Shown: piece by piece, positions 56,270-63,954 of the stretch
How the letters are laid out: each line of letters begins with the position of its first letter
Numbering within the stretch: position 1 is the first letter of the stretch
Source: a virus
Lineage: Duplodnaviria; Caudoviricetes
Length of the DNA stretch: 64,000 nucleotides
Direction: 5' to 3' (one strand)
IMG/VR virus record: IMGVR_UViG_2917802685_000001
Coordinates: 1 to 64,000 of that record
Notes under the pieces: generated by a model
Told to the model about the DNA's origin: nothing
What the model saw: only the letters and a program-made list of their open reading frames with translations
The model's database searches: none
Position numbers and translations under genes: made by a program

Positions 56270-58471
56270 ATGATCAGCAAGAACAACGAGGACACCTCGC
56301 CCCTGGCGAACTTTGATCCCACGGAGATTCACCAGCTGTTCCTGGGATTGGAGGTGCCCGATCCGATTACGTTCGTGGTCTCGCCGAGGTATCTGAACCG
56401 GCCAAACCTCTACCCGCGCCAGGCCACCCTCATGAAGGTGTTCTTCCTGCGCGAGGACCTCTTCACCGACTACGACTACCGGGTCGTCGCCGAGTGGGAC
56501 GAGTCCTACCGCACCGCCAAGTCCTCCAACGAACAGCGGGCCGCGCGCGCCGCTGAACTCGCCGAGACCAGCCCCGAAGCCGCCCTCGAAGCCGAGGTCG
56601 ACGGCATCATGACCGAGGCCCTCGACGCCATCGCCGCCCAGGCCCTGCTGGAGGGCAACGAGGACGCCCCCAAGATGCCCCTGTCCGGCTCCCCGGACCT
56701 CCTGGGCCGCATGCGCGCCTGCAAGGCTCTCGGCTACAGCTGGTTCAAAGAGATCCTCCTGGTCATGGGCCGCCGCGCAGGCAAGGGCCACATCAGCGCC
56801 CTGGCCATGGCCTACGTCCTGTGGTGCTACATGGCCAAGGGCGACCCCCAGGAGTTCTACGGCGTCGACCGCGACAAGAAGCTCGCCGTGCTGATCTTCG
56901 CCGGTAAGCGCGACCAGGCCAAACAGAACCTGTGGCGCGACCTCGTCAACGTCGTCACCGGCGGCCCGTGTTTCGCCCCCTACATCGCCGACAGCCTCGG
57001 CGAGAAGCTCTCCGTCTACGCGCCGAACGACTTCGTCCGCATGGAAGACATGCGCAAGCGCGGCATCAAGACCGCCATGGACATGGCCACCTTCCACATC
57101 CTGCCCAAGGAATCCACCGTCATGGCGGGCCGTGGCCCGGCCTCCATGATCCTCGGCTTCGACGAGATGGCCCACGTCGTCAACAGCGGCGCCAACCGCT
57201 CCGCCGGAGAGGTCTACGACGCCTCCACCCCCTCCCTCGACCAGTTCGGCAGAGACGGCTTCATCGTCGAGCCCAGCTCGCCGTGGGAGATGAGCGGCAA
57301 GTTCTACGACAACTGGCTGCGCGCCACCAGCTACGAGGACGACGGCACCCCCACCTACGCGAACGTCATGATGATCCAGCTCCCCAGCTGGGACGTCTAC
57401 CTCGACTGGCAGATCGCCCACGAACTGCCCCTCTTCCCCGAGGGCTTCACCGGCGACAACGGCGAGTACGCCGACTGCGACCCGCCCGGCTTCAAGCCCC
57501 TCAAGGGCGCCATCCAGAACTTCGACGAAGAGATGCGCAAGCTGGAGAAGGCCGACCCCGACACCTTCGCCGTCGAGCGCCGCGCCCAGTGGGCCACCGT
57601 CCTGGACGCCTACCTCAATCCGGACAAGGTCGAATCCGTCTTCGGCCCCTGGCACGAGCGCCCCGTCGAATACGGCAGCCCGCTCATCCTGCCCACCACC
57701 CAGGGCATCCTCGCCTACACCTACAAGGGCCACGCCGACCCCAGCTCCGTCAACTGCCGCTTCGGCGTCGCCCTCGCCCACACAGAGATCGACGCCGAGG
57801 GCCGCCCCCACGTCGTCTTCGACAAGATCCACTACTTCGATCCGGCCGACTTCCCGAACCACACCATCGACTACGAGGAAGTCGAGGACTGGATCTGGCA
57901 CGACATGATCGTCCCCTTCAGCCCCGACGACTTCACCTTCGACCAGTACCAGTCGGTCGGATCCATCCAGTCACTCGTCAAGCGGACCGCCAAGACGCGC
58001 CTGCCCAAGAAGGTCAACATCTGGGAGCGCACCGCCACCAACCAGATCAACTGGCGCTACGCCGAGACCTTCAAGGCCGCGATCAACATGGGCCTGGTCC
58101 ACGCGCCCGAGCACGAAGAGGGCATGCTGGAGCTGAAGTTCCTCCAGAAGAAGCCCGGCATCAACCGCGTCGATCACCCCACCATCGGTCCCGTCCAGAC
58201 CAAGGACATCGCCGATGCGATCATGATCACAACGTTCGCGCTCATCGGTGACTGGATCGAGGGCTACAAGGAGATGCTCAACGGCGCCAGGCCCGCTGGC
58301 GCCATGGTGGGTGGCCTGCACGGATCCAGCGCCCGCACCCCCGACATGGCCATGCCTGACCAGGACACACAGGCCCGCCTGAACGCCCTGCGCAGCTTCA
58401 CCCGCACCCGTACAGGACGCCAGGGCTGGGATCAAGGCCTCGGCCGCACAAGGTCCGGATATCGCCGCTGA
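56270..58471 (+). CDS. terL: Terminase large subunit
   Basis: YPRQ, MGRRAGKG (Walker A), ILGFDEMAH (Walker B), SSP; nuclease HADPS, TFDQY, KDIADA. Confidence 0.85.
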   Translation: MISKNNEDTSPLANFDPTEIHQLFLGLEVPDPITFVVSPRYLNRPNLYPRQATLMKVFFLREDLFTDYDYRVVAEWDESYRTAKSSNEQRAARAAELAETSPEAALEAEVDGIMTEALDAIAAQALLEGNEDAPKMPLSGSPDLLGRMRACKALGYSWFKEILLVMGRRAGKGHISALAMAYVLWCYMAKGDPQEFYGVDRDKKLAVLIFAGKRDQAKQNLWRDLVNVVTGGPCFAPYIADSLGEKLSVYAPNDFVRMEDMRKRGIKTAMDMATFHILPKESTVMAGRGPASMILGFDEMAHVVNSGANRSAGEVYDASTPSLDQFGRDGFIVEPSSPWEMSGKFYDNWLRATSYEDDGTPTYANVMMIQLPSWDVYLDWQIAHELPLFPEGFTGDNGEYADCDPPGFKPLKGAIQNFDEEMRKLEKADPDTFAVERRAQWATVLDAYLNPDKVESVFGPWHERPVEYGSPLILPTTQGILAYTYKGHADPSSVNCRFGVALAHTEIDAEGRPHVVFDKIHYFDPADFPNHTIDYEEVEDWIWHDMIVPFSPDDFTFDQYQSVGSIQSLVKRTAKTRLPKKVNIWERTATNQINWRYAETFKAAINMGLVHAPEHEEGMLELKFLQKKPGINRVDHPTIGPVQTKDIADAIMITTFALIGDWIEGYKEMLNGARPAGAMVGGLHGSSARTPDMAMPDQDTQARLNALRSFTRTRTGRQGWDQGLGRTRSGYRR

Positions 58472-58522
58472 CCTGGAATGGCTGCCTTGCCCACGAGGAA
58501 AACTCCGTGGCACGATGGCGTC

Positions 58523-58691
58523 GTCTCGTGAATGGGTTGCAGCCAGGGGTCCTTTCGGCCCGGGAACAACTGCAGCTGGCAGGCGTGCCTCAACGTGCCA
58601 CCCGGCGCCAGACCGATCAGGTCGGCCGGATGGCGCCGGGGTGTGGTGGAGTCTGGCGGGACTGACCACTACTTAAAACGTCTCACGAGAC
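58523..58691 (+). ncRNA. Candidate ~170-nt multi-stem structured RNA (strand not proven)
   Basis: TTGCCC-N18-CACGAT promoter-like site at 58487-58516; closing stem GTCTCGTGA/TCACGAGAC; four internal helices; downstream hairpin. Confidence 0.55.
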
Positions 58692-58698
58692 ACGAGAT

Positions 58699-58730
58699 GC
58701 CCCCCGGACAGGTACCGCCGGGGGGCTCTC
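58699..58730 (+). terminator. Hairpin after the candidate ncRNA
   Basis: GCCCCCCGG 58699-58707 / CCGGGGGGC 58718-58726. Confidence 0.55.
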
Positions 58731-58739
58731 CCATTCCCA

Positions 58740-58783
58740 TGTCCACCAGCTCTTCACCGACGTGAAGGGCTGGAGGTGCAGGG
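58740..58783 (+). promoter_or_regulatory. Late-gene motif (variant) with hairpin over the RBS
   Basis: TGTCC at 58740, AAGGGCTGG at 58765; CCAGCTCTTCA/TGAAGGGCTGG arms. Confidence 0.55.
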
Positions 58784-61471
58784 ATGACGGACATCAGCGC
58801 GACCAGCTTCTTCCGCCAGGCGGGCGTCGCCGACGGCGGCATCGACTTCGACCACGAAGAGACCGACACCGGCAGCTCGATCTGGCCGACCAGGATCAAG
58901 CTCAAGGCCCTGCACCCCGAGACCGGCGAGGAGATGGGCTTCCTCGACTACCAGGTGCCCCGCCGCAAGACCAACAAGATCACCGTCCATGAGCTGAAGA
59001 CCCACGAGGACTACCAGCGCAAGGGCGTCGGCTCCGCCCTCATGGACGAGATGCAGCGCCGCCACCCCGGCACGCCTGTAGATCACGGCGACCGCACCCC
59101 CGCCGGTAAGGCGTGGTGGAAGGGCTACACCGACGGCAAGAAGGTCACCCGGGGCCGAACCATGGCCACCCGCACGACGGCCGCCGCCCCGGAGACCTTC
59201 GCGCGCGGCGACGGCGAGGATTGGCTGGCGCACCGCCAGCGCGTCCGCCACGGCCTGTCCACGGGCCGCATCTCCTACCCGCAGGCCCGCGAGCACGGCT
59301 ACGACGGCGATGCGCGAGAGGACACCCGCGACAGCTGGACCGGACAGCACACCGAAGGCAAGGGCTGGCAGCCCCTGCCCCACCAGCTCTACCACACCAC
59401 CACCGACGCCGCCGGAGTCGCCGCCCACGGCCTGCGCAGCGGCGGAGAACTCGGTCAGGACAGGGGCCACGGTCTCGGCGGCACCCCCGAGTGGCTGTCC
59501 CTGACCGACCACCACGACAACGCCCACAACATGCTCGATGCGATGCACGAGTACCACGCCCACCTCAACGGCAAGACCAGCTTCCCTGACCTCCACCGAG
59601 CGGCCGAGAGCGGAGAGGGCGCCCAGCAGCCCTTCCACAAGCCCTTCGTGGACGGCATCTCGGAGATGTACAACGAGCACCACCGAGACTCGCTGATGCG
59701 GGGGAAGCGCATCGAGCCCGGCTTCGCCACCTACGACGAGGCCAAGGAGAAGGGCTGGACGCCACACCCGACCCTCCACAAGGACTTCGGCGAGGACAAG
59801 CACGGCCGCCACATCGGCACCGGCTGGGAGCGCGACTCCAACCTCGAAGAGCGCCACGACGAGTACGGAGCCTTCTCCCGCGCCCGCCAGTTCTCCGGCA
59901 ACGGCAAGCCCTCCGTGCTGTTCACCAGCAACGACCGCCGGGCGTTCGCCGACAAGGACCCCAGGAACTTCGCCGTCCTCCACGTCCGCCCCCGCCCCGG
60001 CGGCCACGGCTTCCCCGGCGGCGACAAGCACGAGTGGCGCACCGGCAGCGGCGACGCCGTTGAGGTCCACGGCGAGCCCATCCGCCGTCAGGCCCTACGC
60101 GTCACGGCGGCCGTCCAGGACGGCGACGACATCCCGTCCCGCCTCCTCAACCCCCACGGCCACCACGTCCGCGCCCGGGTCGAGGGCAACACGAACGTTG
60201 AGATGGTCCCGCGCCACGAGGTCGAGCGCTACGCCAGCCAGCCGACCGACGACGCGCACACCAAGGAGGTCGGCACCCACGTCGCCACCAGCGGCGAGAT
60301 GGAGCCCCTCCTCCTGCACTACCACCCCGCCAGCGGTGAGGCCTACCTCGGCGAGGGCAACCACCGCTTGCGCGCCGCCAAGGCCCTGGGTATGGACCAC
60401 GTCCCCCTGCGCGTGAGCCGCTCCAGCTACGGCCTGCCCGGCCCCGGCGTGAAGGTCCCCCAGGACCACCCCGCCATCGCGGCAGGCGGCCACGTCCCGG
60501 CCGACATCTACCCCAGCCACATCGGCCTCACCGCAGTGGACAAGCCCGCCATCCCGGAGGGTGACCTGCGCAGCGCCAGGAACGACTACAACCTCACCGG
60601 CCGCCCCCGCCTGGCGGCAGCCGACACCCCCGTGCCGGACAACACCCAGCCGTACCAGCACGAGCACGACTGGCTTCCCCACGGCCACTTCTTCGGCCCC
60701 GGGAAGAAGGGCCTGGACCCGCGCCTGTTCGACGAGAACGACCGGATGCACCCGATCGTCCGCCAGCACCTGCTGTCTCTGCTCAACGCCTTCTGGACCC
60801 CGAAGTACGGCGACTCCTGGCAGTCCTGGGCCCGCGTCTACCTCACCGGCTCCGAGGCCTCCCACTGGTACGGCAACGGCGACCTCGACGTCCTCATCGG
60901 CATTGACCACGAGGCCCTCAACCACCACGTCGACCACTTCACCGGCGAGCCGGACGACGCGGTCGACGAGCGCCTCACCAACGAGCTGCGCGAGGGCCTC
61001 AACGACGACCACCGGATGTTCCCCGGCCCGGACGGCAAGGACACCGGCCCCTGGGAGTCGACCTTCTACGTCAACCCGGGCTCGTACGACATCCGCGACC
61101 TCAAGCCCTACGCCGCCTACGACATCACCCGCGACGAGTGGGCCGTCAAGCCGGTCGAGGTCCCCGACGACTTCGGGCCCGAGAAGCTCCCCGAGTCCAC
61201 CTGGGACGTCCTCGACGCGCTGCAGAAGCTCATCGGCGCCATCCAGGAGCTGCCCGCCGGAACCCGGGAGCGCGAGGGCGCCGCGCTGTACGATTACCTC
61301 CACGCTGACCGCCACAGCGCTTTCGGCCCCGAGGGATCGGGCCTCTATGACCCTGCCAACGCTGTCTGGAAGGCCCTCGACAAGGCCCCCGGCAAGCCGC
61401 TGCAGCAGCTCATCGACTGGAAACACGCCCACGACGGGACCGCCGCCACGGACCTGGAGACCGCAGCATGA
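58784..61471 (+). CDS. Polyvalent protein 1: GNAT + ART-like + ParB/Srx-like + nucleotidyltransferase
   Basis: YQRKGVGSALM; LYHTT..GL..WLSLT..HEW; GEGNHRLRAA; LTGSEAS..DLDVLI. Confidence 0.75.
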   Translation: MTDISATSFFRQAGVADGGIDFDHEETDTGSSIWPTRIKLKALHPETGEEMGFLDYQVPRRKTNKITVHELKTHEDYQRKGVGSALMDEMQRRHPGTPVDHGDRTPAGKAWWKGYTDGKKVTRGRTMATRTTAAAPETFARGDGEDWLAHRQRVRHGLSTGRISYPQAREHGYDGDAREDTRDSWTGQHTEGKGWQPLPHQLYHTTTDAAGVAAHGLRSGGELGQDRGHGLGGTPEWLSLTDHHDNAHNMLDAMHEYHAHLNGKTSFPDLHRAAESGEGAQQPFHKPFVDGISEMYNEHHRDSLMRGKRIEPGFATYDEAKEKGWTPHPTLHKDFGEDKHGRHIGTGWERDSNLEERHDEYGAFSRARQFSGNGKPSVLFTSNDRRAFADKDPRNFAVLHVRPRPGGHGFPGGDKHEWRTGSGDAVEVHGEPIRRQALRVTAAVQDGDDIPSRLLNPHGHHVRARVEGNTNVEMVPRHEVERYASQPTDDAHTKEVGTHVATSGEMEPLLLHYHPASGEAYLGEGNHRLRAAKALGMDHVPLRVSRSSYGLPGPGVKVPQDHPAIAAGGHVPADIYPSHIGLTAVDKPAIPEGDLRSARNDYNLTGRPRLAAADTPVPDNTQPYQHEHDWLPHGHFFGPGKKGLDPRLFDENDRMHPIVRQHLLSLLNAFWTPKYGDSWQSWARVYLTGSEASHWYGNGDLDVLIGIDHEALNHHVDHFTGEPDDAVDERLTNELREGLNDDHRMFPGPDGKDTGPWESTFYVNPGSYDIRDLKPYAAYDITRDEWAVKPVEVPDDFGPEKLPESTWDVLDALQKLIGAIQELPAGTREREGAALYDYLHADRHSAFGPEGSGLYDPANAVWKALDKAPGKPLQQLIDWKHAHDGTAATDLETAA

Positions 61472-63954
61472 CCGAGTTCAACGCCGTCGCCCACTTCCGC
61501 CAGGCTGCCTGGTCCGACGAGGAAGGCCTGTCCGACAAGACCCGGGCCGCCGTCGACCGGGCCGAGGGCGACTGGCACACCCACCGGCAGTACCTCGCCG
61601 AAGACCACATGAACAAGCAACTGGACCCGGAGACCAACCGGCTCGCCCACCAGGGCCACGCCCAGCGCACCGCCAACAAGATCACCGACGCCGAGGGCCT
61701 GCCCCCCGTCAAGGTCCTCGTCCACGACTCACCGAACGTCGCCGGGCGCGGCACAGCCCACGACGGCAGCCCGGTCATCGCGCTCGGCGAGAACACCCTG
61801 AAGCACACCACCCTCATCCACGAGCTGACGCACCACATGCGCCAGCCCCACGAGGACGACCCCGACCACAACGCGGGCGGCTTCTACGGCGACTACATCG
61901 GCATGCTGCAGCGCCACCACCCCGACCCCGACGCGTACGTGCACATGATGGACGCCAACAAGCTCGCCGTGGCCCACATGCGCGCCCACCCCGGCAACTT
62001 CCCACCCCGGACCGCGAGTGCGGCCTACGATGCCCCAGAAGGAGGCAGCCATGGATCCGAACGAGCAGGACGAGACGATGGACCCCGAGGTCGAAGCGGA
62101 GATCCTGCAGAGGCACGACACTCCCGGGGAGCGCAGCACGGTCAGCGTGAACGAGCTGCGGCACCGGGCCGCCGTGTCCGCGCAGCAGCAGGCGTAGAGC
62201 GCCACCCCGAGCTGCAGGGCGACCTCGACCGCCTCGGCGGAGGCGCCCGCCACGTCCAGGAGACCATCGACGCCCTGCACCACGGCGGCTCCGGCGGCGC
62301 CGTCACCTACCCGCTCTCGCACCCGCTGGAGGGCTGGCACGCAGCCCTCACCAGCGGCGGCCACCAGGTCGTGCACCGGCACGACGGCGAAACCCTCCAC
62401 GTCGGCTACGCCGGACACAACATCGCCGACGCCGAGCAGCGCCTGGGCGCCAGCAACGGAAACGGCTCCCTGCCGGTGGAGTTCCACAAGGGCGCCGAGA
62501 AAGACTTCGACGGCCTCCACCCCGAGGTCCAGGAGAAGGCCCTCAACACCATCGACCGCCTCGCACGCGGCGAGCAGCACAAGTACGACCACGCCCTCAA
62601 CGGCGGACAATGGGAGAGCGGCGGCTGGCGATCGGCCCGCGCCGACTTCCTGCACCGCGTCACCCACCGCTTCGAGGACGCCGACGGCAACCCCACTCCT
62701 CCCGAGCGCGCGGCCCGGCTGTTCGTCGGCCACATTGGCCCGCACAACTACGGCGACGCCGCCAAGCGCCTCTCCAGCCTGACCGGCTTCTTCCGGCAGG
62801 CCAGCCTGCCGCAGGAGTGGTACCACGGCTCCGGGGCCGTCTTCGACCGCTTCGATCCGAGCAAGGACAAGACCGTCCAGGACGAGAGCGCCGAGCCCAA
62901 GCACTGGAACAGCCACCTCGGCTCCCACTTCTCCAGCGACCACCGCGTCGCCCAGGAGTTCGCCCAGCGCCAGGGCGGCGGCCACGTCTACCACGTCCAG
63001 CTCAACCTGCAGAACCCCAAGCACTACGAGTCCGAGCACGACCTGGACAAGGAAGCTGTCCTGTGGGCTCACCACAACGGCCACGACATGGGGCCGTCGG
63101 TGAGCAAACCGGCCTACCGCGAGCACATCGAGCCGGACGAGTGGCAGTTCTTCCCCAAGTACGACGACCACGGCGACCCCCGGCCGAACACCCAAGAGAT
63201 CGCCCACGGCTTCCGTGACCACCTCAAGGCCCAGGGGCACGACGGCATCACCTACGGCAACGAGTTCGAGGGCGCCCACAACGGCTTCCACGCCGGAGAA
63301 CGGCACCTCAGCGCTATCGCCTTCCACCCTGACCAGGTCACCATCACGCAGCGGCACAGAGGCAACGAGCCCCACACCGCCGCCCTGCAACTGACCGAGG
63401 CCGAAAACCGTCTGCTGCAGCGTCAGGCGGCGGCCGTCGAGAACGGCAGTGGCGTGATGGTTGCGTTCGTCCCGCCGCACGAGGTGGCAGAGCAACTCGC
63501 CCTGCACGGCGGCCAATTGGTCGATGACCTGCACATCACCCTGGCGTACCTGGGCAATGTGGCCGACTACACCAAAGAGCAGCTGACACTGCTGCCGCAA
63601 TTGGTTTCGGCCTGGGCAATGAGGCAAAAGGCAGTTACGATCCACATCGGAGGCGTTGGAACGTTCAACAACGCCTACAAAGACCAGCACGTCCTGTGGG
63701 CGCACCCCGACATACCCGGTGGGGTGCAGATGCACGTCAGCCTGGCTGACTACCTGGAACGGTACGGGTACCGTCTTCCCAGTGAGCACGGCTGGACGGC
63801 CCATATGACGCTGCAATACGTCGACCGGCACAAGCGGTTCATGCCGCAGCTGCCAGAAGTCGGCTGGGAGGCGACCGAGGTGGTCACCTTTGTCGGAGCG
63901 GCTCGCCACGCCGCGCGCCTCGGCCTCCGTCCCAGCACACCCACCACGCTCTAG
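61468..63954 (+). CDS. Polyvalent protein 2: zincin + two RelE/ParE-like + ART-PolyVal-like + 2H phosphoesterase
   Basis: HELTH; VEFHKGAEKDF..HRVTHRF..HIGPH; WYHGS..HFS..LQNP..GHDGI; LHITL...AHMTL. Confidence 0.75.
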   Translation: MTEFNAVAHFRQAAWSDEEGLSDKTRAAVDRAEGDWHTHRQYLAEDHMNKQLDPETNRLAHQGHAQRTANKITDAEGLPPVKVLVHDSPNVAGRGTAHDGSPVIALGENTLKHTTLIHELTHHMRQPHEDDPDHNAGGFYGDYIGMLQRHHPDPDAYVHMMDANKLAVAHMRAHPGNFPPRTASAAYDAPEGGSHGSERAGRDDGPRGRSGDPAEARHSRGAQHGQRERAAAPGRRVRAAAGVERHPELQGDLDRLGGGARHVQETIDALHHGGSGGAVTYPLSHPLEGWHAALTSGGHQVVHRHDGETLHVGYAGHNIADAEQRLGASNGNGSLPVEFHKGAEKDFDGLHPEVQEKALNTIDRLARGEQHKYDHALNGGQWESGGWRSARADFLHRVTHRFEDADGNPTPPERAARLFVGHIGPHNYGDAAKRLSSLTGFFRQASLPQEWYHGSGAVFDRFDPSKDKTVQDESAEPKHWNSHLGSHFSSDHRVAQEFAQRQGGGHVYHVQLNLQNPKHYESEHDLDKEAVLWAHHNGHDMGPSVSKPAYREHIEPDEWQFFPKYDDHGDPRPNTQEIAHGFRDHLKAQGHDGITYGNEFEGAHNGFHAGERHLSAIAFHPDQVTITQRHRGNEPHTAALQLTEAENRLLQRQAAAVENGSGVMVAFVPPHEVAEQLALHGGQLVDDLHITLAYLGNVADYTKEQLTLLPQLVSAWAMRQKAVTIHIGGVGTFNNAYKDQHVLWAHPDIPGGVQMHVSLADYLERYGYRLPSEHGWTAHMTLQYVDRHKRFMPQLPEVGWEATEVVTFVGAARHAARLGLRPSTPTTL
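62051..62197 (+). CDS. Nested +1-frame 48-aa ORF, putative antitoxin
   Basis: GAAGGAGG RBS at 62038-62045; MDPNEQDETMDPEVEAEILQRHDTPGERSTVSVNELRHRAAVSAQQQA; ends where the first RelE-like domain starts. Confidence 0.6.
   Translation: MDPNEQDETMDPEVEAEILQRHDTPGERSTVSVNELRHRAAVSAQQQA

Follow-up and report, generated by a model that had tools for sequence, protein, structure and literature searches.

Locus and Reading Frames

The stretch of DNA analyzed here (the window) is 64,000 nucleotides long and covers positions 1 to 64,000 of the IMG/VR virus record IMGVR_UViG_2917802685_000001. It carries two genes for polyvalent proteins, which are large multi-domain proteins, and the subject of this analysis is a small open reading frame (ORF) found inside the second of them. 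The host gene lies at 61468-63954 on the + strand and encodes 828 amino acids (aa). The small ORF sits in the +1 frame of this coding sequence at 62051..62197 (+), with an ATG at 62051, 48 codons, and a TAG at 62195-62197. A Shine-Dalgarno (SD) sequence, GAAGGAGG, lies just before it at 62038..62045 (+), leaving a 5-nt spacer to the nested ATG, and is read as E-G-G in the host frame. An earlier note, made from the sequence alone, had reported this SD, start, stop and 48-aa product, and the sequence bears them out. The note also proposed that the ORF encodes an antitoxin for the RelE-like domains which follow it.

Between 62038 and 62196 (+) the DNA is dual-coded. In the host frame this stretch encodes aa 191-243, a linker in which Arg, Gly and Ala account for 32 of 52 residues and whose isoelectric point (pI) is 11.6. 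The nested TAG shares bases with the host codon GTA for Val243, the residue with which strand 1 of the host protein's first RelE-fold domain opens; the nested ORF does stop where that domain begins, as the note had said.

The two frames differ in codon composition. GC content at the third codon position (GC3) of the host frame is 0.42 over the linker (~62030-62197), compared with ~0.95 across the remaining gene, while the +1 frame of the same stretch has GC contents of ~0.75/0.40/0.94 at its three codon positions (GC1/2/3), a normal coding pattern. A scan of the three large genes at 56270-63954 found this to be the only frame anomaly among them. Codon usage can separate the older from the newer frame in overlapping genes (PMC3744397). 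By that argument the +1 ORF, judged from its composition, came first and was overprinted by the polyprotein frame, because the +1 frame and not the host frame has the normal codon signature.

A further in-frame ATG is found at 62030-62032, seven codons before the SD-proximal ATG. It occurs in one clade only, has no SD of its own, derives from a Y-D-A junction motif of the host protein, and is probably not the start. Gene callers treat the region inconsistently. The small ORF is called as a gene by some pipelines (P0022, P0023, P0026). Among loci L003, L007, L018 and L019 and proteins P0009, P0011, P0017, P0019 and P0021, some callers give one long ORF, and others give the small nested ORF and begin the downstream gene at an internal GTG within RelE-fold domain 1, so that the polyprotein is truncated. 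Standard annotation leaves out the small gene or else cuts the large one short.

Conservation and Selection across Homologues

The comparison set, compiled by protein and DNA searches, has 16 distinct loci homologous to this one; they come from Streptomyces genomes, IMG/VR contigs and metagenome assemblies. The flanking domains of these loci are 47-85% identical to the query. A GGAGG-type SD stands 5-7 nt before the +1 ATG in 16/16 loci, and in 16/16 the TAG is at the identical position within an invariant GTAG. The length of the nested ORF ranges from 38 to 56 codons among the relatives.

These start and stop signals are carried on codons that are rare in the host genes, where CAT makes up 2 of 150 His codons (1.3%), AAT 2 of 79 Asn codons (2.5%) and GTA 1 of 126 Val codons (0.8%). 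Either CAT or AAT spans the nested ATG at each SD-proximal start that was scored (15 loci), and GTA spans the nested TAG in all 16. The coding signature of the +1 frame, with GC1/2/3 of ~0.75/0.45/0.95, is present in all 14 aligned homologues. Its second codon position, which is the third position of the host frame, has 35-55% GC over the whole ORF in all aligned lineages; this points to constraint on the +1 frame, because host third positions without such constraint would have ended up at ~95% GC.

Constraint on the encoded peptides was evaluated with a BLOSUM permutation test on seven independent pairs, in which the observed substitutions were randomly re-placed while their spectrum was kept and stops were forbidden. 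The lineages differ at ~30% of the core nucleotides. The +1 peptide was found to be constrained (z = +5.2, with 0/2000 permutations reaching the observed value), and the host-frame linker peptide was found to be unconstrained (z = -1.2). The reverse was seen in four control blocks taken from the RelE region, with z of 5-11 for the host frame and values around 0 or negative for the +1 frame. The earlier suggestion that the linker reads like an off-frame translation agrees with these numbers: GC3 of 0.42 and z of -1.2 in the host frame, against GC3 of 0.94 and z of +5.2 in the +1 frame.

Altogether the +1 frame holds a complete ORF with its own start signals, in a frame other than that of its host and with selection on its product. 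We are confident that the nested gene is real and under selection. The SD and ATG suggest that it is translated separately, which we regard as likely.

The Downstream RelE/ParE-Fold Tandem

Two domains follow the linker in the host frame. Domain 1 lies at 62194..62448 (+; aa 243 to ~327), and its first codon is the GTA which overlaps the nested TAG. Domain 2 lies at 62464..62790 (+; aa ~333-441). The region of aa 243-441 has 78% mean column identity across the homologues, and its structure as predicted by AlphaFold2 (predicted local distance difference test score, pLDDT, 79) consists of two repeats of strand, helix, helix and sheet.

The top rows of a Foldseek search with the tandem model were RelE/ParE-superfamily toxins only. 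In VIA, domain 1 (model residues 1-78/82) matched RelK (3oei_K, Z 10.8, 77/84 residues), YafQ (Z 10.6) and YoeB (Z 10.5). Domain 2 (model residues 91-190) matched YoeB/ParE 6n90_B (Z 10.6, 81/86 residues), with lower matches to Sa2YoeB (Z 10.2), HigB1 (Z 9.8), RelE (Z 9.3) and ParE2 (Z 8.6). The VIA matches span nearly the whole toxin chains. In the predicted model, then, both domains have the RelE/ParE (BECR) fold, and the description of these domains as RelE-like, which had been made without any structure, is upheld by fold matches to RelK, YoeB and YafQ at Z of 10.5-10.8.

The start of domain 2 also aligned to a free-standing PF05016 ParE_toxin with hhalign (95.9%, E 6e-9, 44% identity), over just the first 34 residues of that toxin. 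Its gene is on a metagenome contig (L020:2-482) and has a Phd/YefM antitoxin gene upstream, and the toxin is possibly a distant relative of the captured one. A metagenome scan yielded this canonical TA pair and no other. The same V-E-x-H strand opens both domains of the tandem, and in domain 1 its Val is the one encoded by the GTA over the nested TAG. Invariant His, Arg and Tyr residues are found near the last strands (HRVTHR, GH.GPHNY, GYAGHN); as sequence motifs they are suggestive only, and hint at catalytic residues. In all full-length homologues the RelE-fold domains are internal to polyproteins of 611-1303 aa, and no free-standing tandem RelE homologues of 109-350 aa were found.

The Encoded Peptide and Its Cassette

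The peptide has a conserved core of ~36 aa, P-[ED]-[VI]-[EQ]-x-E-[IL]-L-x-R-x-x-T-x-x-D-R-x-x-V-S-L-N-E-L-R. It is predicted to fold as a helix (aa 12-23), a loop, and a second helix (aa 33-47), with pLDDT 83. The earlier note called it acidic, and this is true of the copy in the window (pI 4.4) and not of the family, in which pI ranges from 4.3 to 11.8; acidity was rejected as an argument for an antitoxin because it is not a family trait.

Foldseek with the peptide model returned nothing. In the ESM Atlas the best score for the peptide was 0.83, and a cluster with RelB3_C in 13% of its members scored 0.79, under any useful threshold. When the peptide profile was searched against 1.84 billion representative proteins, the only matches besides three repetitive long proteins were three nested copies.

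Every locus has an uninterrupted host frame running from the upstream module through the linker into the downstream domains. What stands before the linker varies among at least six alternatives: an HExxH module, GNAT, NUDIX, a Zn-ribbon, another domain, or only a 16-aa N-terminal leader. No locus has a conserved start codon after the nested TAG, and the first in-frame start in the window is the GTG inside domain 1. The continuity of the ORF in 16 loci suggests that the host frame is read through. Given the peptide and the local codon usage, the host frame is open by chance in ~66% of resamplings, and because an open host frame is this cheap, the linker is best seen as a passive spacer produced by reading across an older gene.

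The nested ORF and the RelE tandem strictly co-occur in the 16 loci, while both outer neighbors vary. Conservation of the +1 ORF together with the RelE domains had been put forward as a check on the antitoxin proposal, and it was found in 16/16 loci. On this comparison of loci, the small gene and the two RelE/ParE-fold domains appear to move as one cassette between the polyvalent proteins of Streptomyces phage-plasmids.

The Host Protein and Its Replicon

The product of 61468-63954 is annotated as 2'-5' RNA ligase family. The order of modules in the 828-aa protein is HExxH module, linker, RelE-fold domain 1, RelE-fold domain 2, ART-PolyVal, and 2H phosphoesterase. Pfam identifies ART-PolyVal (aa 448-624) and 2_5_RNA_ligase2, the 2H phosphoesterase (aa 687-798). 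The first part, a leader (MTEFNAVAHFRQA) followed by the HExxH module (HELTHH), lies at 61468..62037 (+) and has no Pfam match; by its motif the module may be a zincin, and in homologues it is swapped for other modules or missing. The 2H phosphoesterase module (63415-63900) has a GC3 of 0.70-0.85, and since this is lower than the ~0.95 found elsewhere in the gene, it suggests that the module was acquired more recently.

A junction motif, SLTGFFRQA, at 62779..62805 (+) ends the cassette of nested gene and RelE domains, and is like the N-terminal leaders and the RTATAFF motif which precedes the cassette in homologues. Both polyvalent proteins start with M-T-x-x-x-A-[TV]-[AS]-[FH]-F-R-Q-A (58784-58825, 61468-61510). 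SLTGFFRQA, or RTATAFF[RA]QA in homologues, is found at module boundaries including both cassette ends. These FFRQA-type motifs may be processing sites, recombination joints for module shuffling, or both.

The window makes up the first 64 kb of pRLB1-9.1 (NZ_CP041653.1, 154 kb) from Streptomyces sp. RLB1-9. This element was deposited as a circular plasmid and is also a 99%-complete virus record, so it is likely a phage-plasmid. Its terminase large subunit gene (TerL, 56270-58471; phrog_2, E 1e-11) is directly upstream of the two polyvalent genes. The first of these follows at 58784-61471, and its stop overlaps the start of the host gene (ATGA). The host protein thus has the marks of a polyvalent protein, with ART-PolyVal and 2H modules found by Pfam, two RelE-fold domains, TerL upstream, and a replicon recorded both as plasmid and as virus. 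There is one peptide gene and one RelE/ParE-fold tandem in the whole element. A blastn search against a phage collection gave zero matches, and a plasmid collection gave just the element's own record and distant 2H modules. GC content of the window is 68%.

A Proposed Captured Toxin-Antitoxin-Like Module and Its Alternatives

Based on position, geometry and linkage, we are led to suspect that the cassette is a captured toxin-antitoxin (TA)-like module, in which the peptide would neutralize the adjacent domains. We put the probability of this at roughly 0.5. The suspicion comes from the geometry: the first codon of domain 1 starts one base before the nested stop, giving the 4-nt stop/start overlap that is common between operon partners and that matches a classical antitoxin-toxin operon.

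The history and working of such a module might be as follows. An older small gene, with its SD, its ATG at 62051 and its TAG at 62197, would have been overprinted by the polyvalent frame, yielding what is probably a disordered Arg/Gly/Ala linker, and the toxin would have lost its own start codon and would now be made only within the polyprotein. Ribosomes recruited by the strong internal SD would translate the peptide from the polyprotein's own mRNA, and the peptide would bind and neutralize one or both RelE/ParE-fold domains in the producing cell. The polyprotein, which is encoded after the terminase, would be packaged or transferred without the peptide, or would outlast it. In the next host the toxin domains would be freed, possibly via cleavage at the FFRQA-type junctions. 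As a general principle we offer this only tentatively: toxin-bearing polyvalent proteins may avoid poisoning their producer by means of an antitoxin gene which the polyprotein frame overprints, so that one mRNA would supply a diffusible inhibitor to the producer and an inhibitor-free toxin for delivery, in virions or by transfer, to the recipient, and the overlap would lock the pair together during shuffling.

Several results weigh against a TA-like module. The peptide has no match in Pfam, NCBIfam, PHROGs or PDB sequences, and hhalign gave 0.2% probability for its relation to the Phd/YefM antitoxin of the L020 pair. No free-standing homologue or TA ancestor of it was detected in the profile search. 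Its model consists of two helices only, with no DNA-binding domain, and a wide VIA search with it was non-specific (best Z 3.2), with PaaA2 at Z 3.1 tied with unrelated helical chains. Its net charge varies by clade from -7 to +5.5. As for the toxin side, neither domain matches the Pfam RelE, ParE, YoeB_toxin or PBECR1-5 models, even at E up to 10, and the tandem has a pI of 6.1, and so is not basic, unlike typical ribosome-dependent RelE toxins. Lastly, the Nei-Gojobori ratio of nonsynonymous to synonymous substitution rates (dN/dS) fails to separate the frames (0.90 vs 1.06); the ratio is uninformative here because the synonymous sites of one frame are the replacement sites of the other. Of the earlier proposal of a captured TA module, the part that stands is a real, selected ORF always placed before RelE/ParE-fold domains, and the part that does not is the antitoxin identity as far as it depends on family resemblance, since the peptide shows no detectable resemblance to any antitoxin family.

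The main rival accepts that the nested gene is real and translated and gives it another job, as a small regulator, a packaging or processing helper, or an anti-defense peptide, whose linkage to the tandem would be due to cassette inheritance only. All of the evidence for a selected nested gene fits this equally well. The unfamiliar and variably charged peptide fits it too, as does a tandem which is atypical for RelE in being acidic to neutral and without a Pfam match. We nevertheless find another job doubtful, because the nested stop abuts the first residue of domain 1 in an exact and invariant way, and because the strict co-occurrence with the tandem in 16 loci, despite varying outer neighbors, is the signature of a functional pair. 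That the +1 ORF is an untranslated relic, swallowed when the modules fused and with signals yet to decay, seems improbable. Read-through fusion would be cheap, as the ~66% of synonymous resamplings with an open host frame indicate, and dN/dS says nothing on the matter. A relic would not be expected to retain an SD, ATG and TAG that commit the host frame to codons of 1-2.5% usage through ~30% core nucleotide divergence, nor to collect substitutions that are conservative for the +1 peptide (z = 5.2), nor to remain at 35-55% GC in its second codon position, where mutation bias would push an unconstrained site to ~95%.

In prfB and dnaX, for example, frameshifting is stimulated by an internal SD. 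The structure could have been mis-read, with programmed frameshifts or sequence errors leading into the +1 frame and back, or with separate genes between which the linker is never translated, and several pipelines do split the homologues into a small ORF and a downstream gene from the internal GTG. Sequencing error was rejected, since 16 independent assemblies have the same layout. Frameshifting is unlikely: at the SD there is neither a slippery site nor a stop in the host frame, and the sense codon just ahead of the TAG is not the same in all loci (GCG, AAG, AGG, CAG, CGG), which leaves no conserved shift site. As for separate genes, no locus has a host-frame stop ending the upstream module or a conserved start opening the downstream one. 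Taken as a whole we hold a mis-reading to be very improbable. A chance open frame has in its favor that long alternative-frame ORFs are common in a window of 68% GC, and is nearly negligible given that the GC3 switch occurs only here, that the homologues keep the start and stop signals, and that the peptide is under constraint.

Comparison with Known Systems

A TA-like module at this locus would be most directly comparable to the type II TA operons (relBE, yefM-yoeB, dinJ-yafQ, parDE), in which a RelE/ParE-fold toxin gene likewise follows immediately after a small gene on its own strand, with the usual overlap. It also shares the start of domain 2 with the Phd/YefM-ParE pair of L020. Unlike in those operons, the putative toxin here is tandem-duplicated, lacks its own start codon and is built into an 828-aa polyprotein, and the upstream gene is wholly within the polyprotein ORF in another frame. 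The peptide, at 38-56 aa, differs from RelB, YefM, DinJ and ParD in having neither a DNA-binding domain nor similarity to them. In being a short helical peptide without an autoregulatory domain it is more like PaaA2 of PaaA2-ParE2, and ParE2 does match domain 2 (Z 8.6), but the match of PaaA2 to the peptide (Z 3.1) is not significant, ties with unrelated helical chains, and concerns a gene, paaA2, which is a normal free-standing one.

Polyvalent proteins, in the part of Iyer et al. 2017 (PMC5512222) drawn on here, are multi-domain effectors of phages and conjugative elements, some with BECR-fold (PBECR) RNase domains. The protein described here resembles them, as characterized in that part, in being an effector encoded beside packaging genes, in drawing on the same stock of modules (ART-PolyVal, 2H, GNAT, ParB-like, zincin-type, BECR-fold), and in heavy shuffling. 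It differs from the PBECR proteins covered there in that its domains match none of Pfam PBECR1-5 and are nearer to the TA-type RelE, YoeB and ParE. So far there is little to explain how a producer cell escapes harm when its phage or plasmid packages nuclease or toxin domains. The same part of PMC5512222 offers proteolytic processing as the means by which activity is controlled and toxins are activated, and within it an out-of-frame nested inhibitor gene is not described. A conserved, separately initiated gene within a polyprotein ORF, welded to toxin domains, would make producer self-protection open to a concrete test.

Fused single-gene TA modules of the RelE/ParE superfamily (mBio 2025, PMC11980606) have the antitoxin as an in-frame domain of the same polypeptide. 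The cassette is like these fusions in placing toxin and antitoxin information in one ORF-sized unit within multidomain BECR-fold proteins, and unlike them in that the antitoxin would be made separately, from another frame.

The nested arrangement itself has precedents. Phage genes nested in this way include lambda Rz/Rz1 and the overlaps of phiX174. As in those, a complete gene with its own SD is found inside another, in the +1 frame. Here, unlike there, the small nested gene seems to be the older, and the large host gene overprints it and gains only a spacer; and the proposed partners, unlike Rz and Rz1, are a toxin domain and its inhibitor instead of two lysis partners. In terms of overprinting theory (PMC3744397, PMC8227390), the locus is an unusually clean bacterial case of dual coding whose evolutionary direction can be read, with the small gene the older. 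Searches of open-access text yielded no description of a toxin-bearing polyprotein whose ORF overprints an antitoxin-like gene. Each of the elements seen here has been described on its own: polyvalent proteins with BECR-fold domains, TA operons, TA fusions in one frame, and phage genes nested in others.

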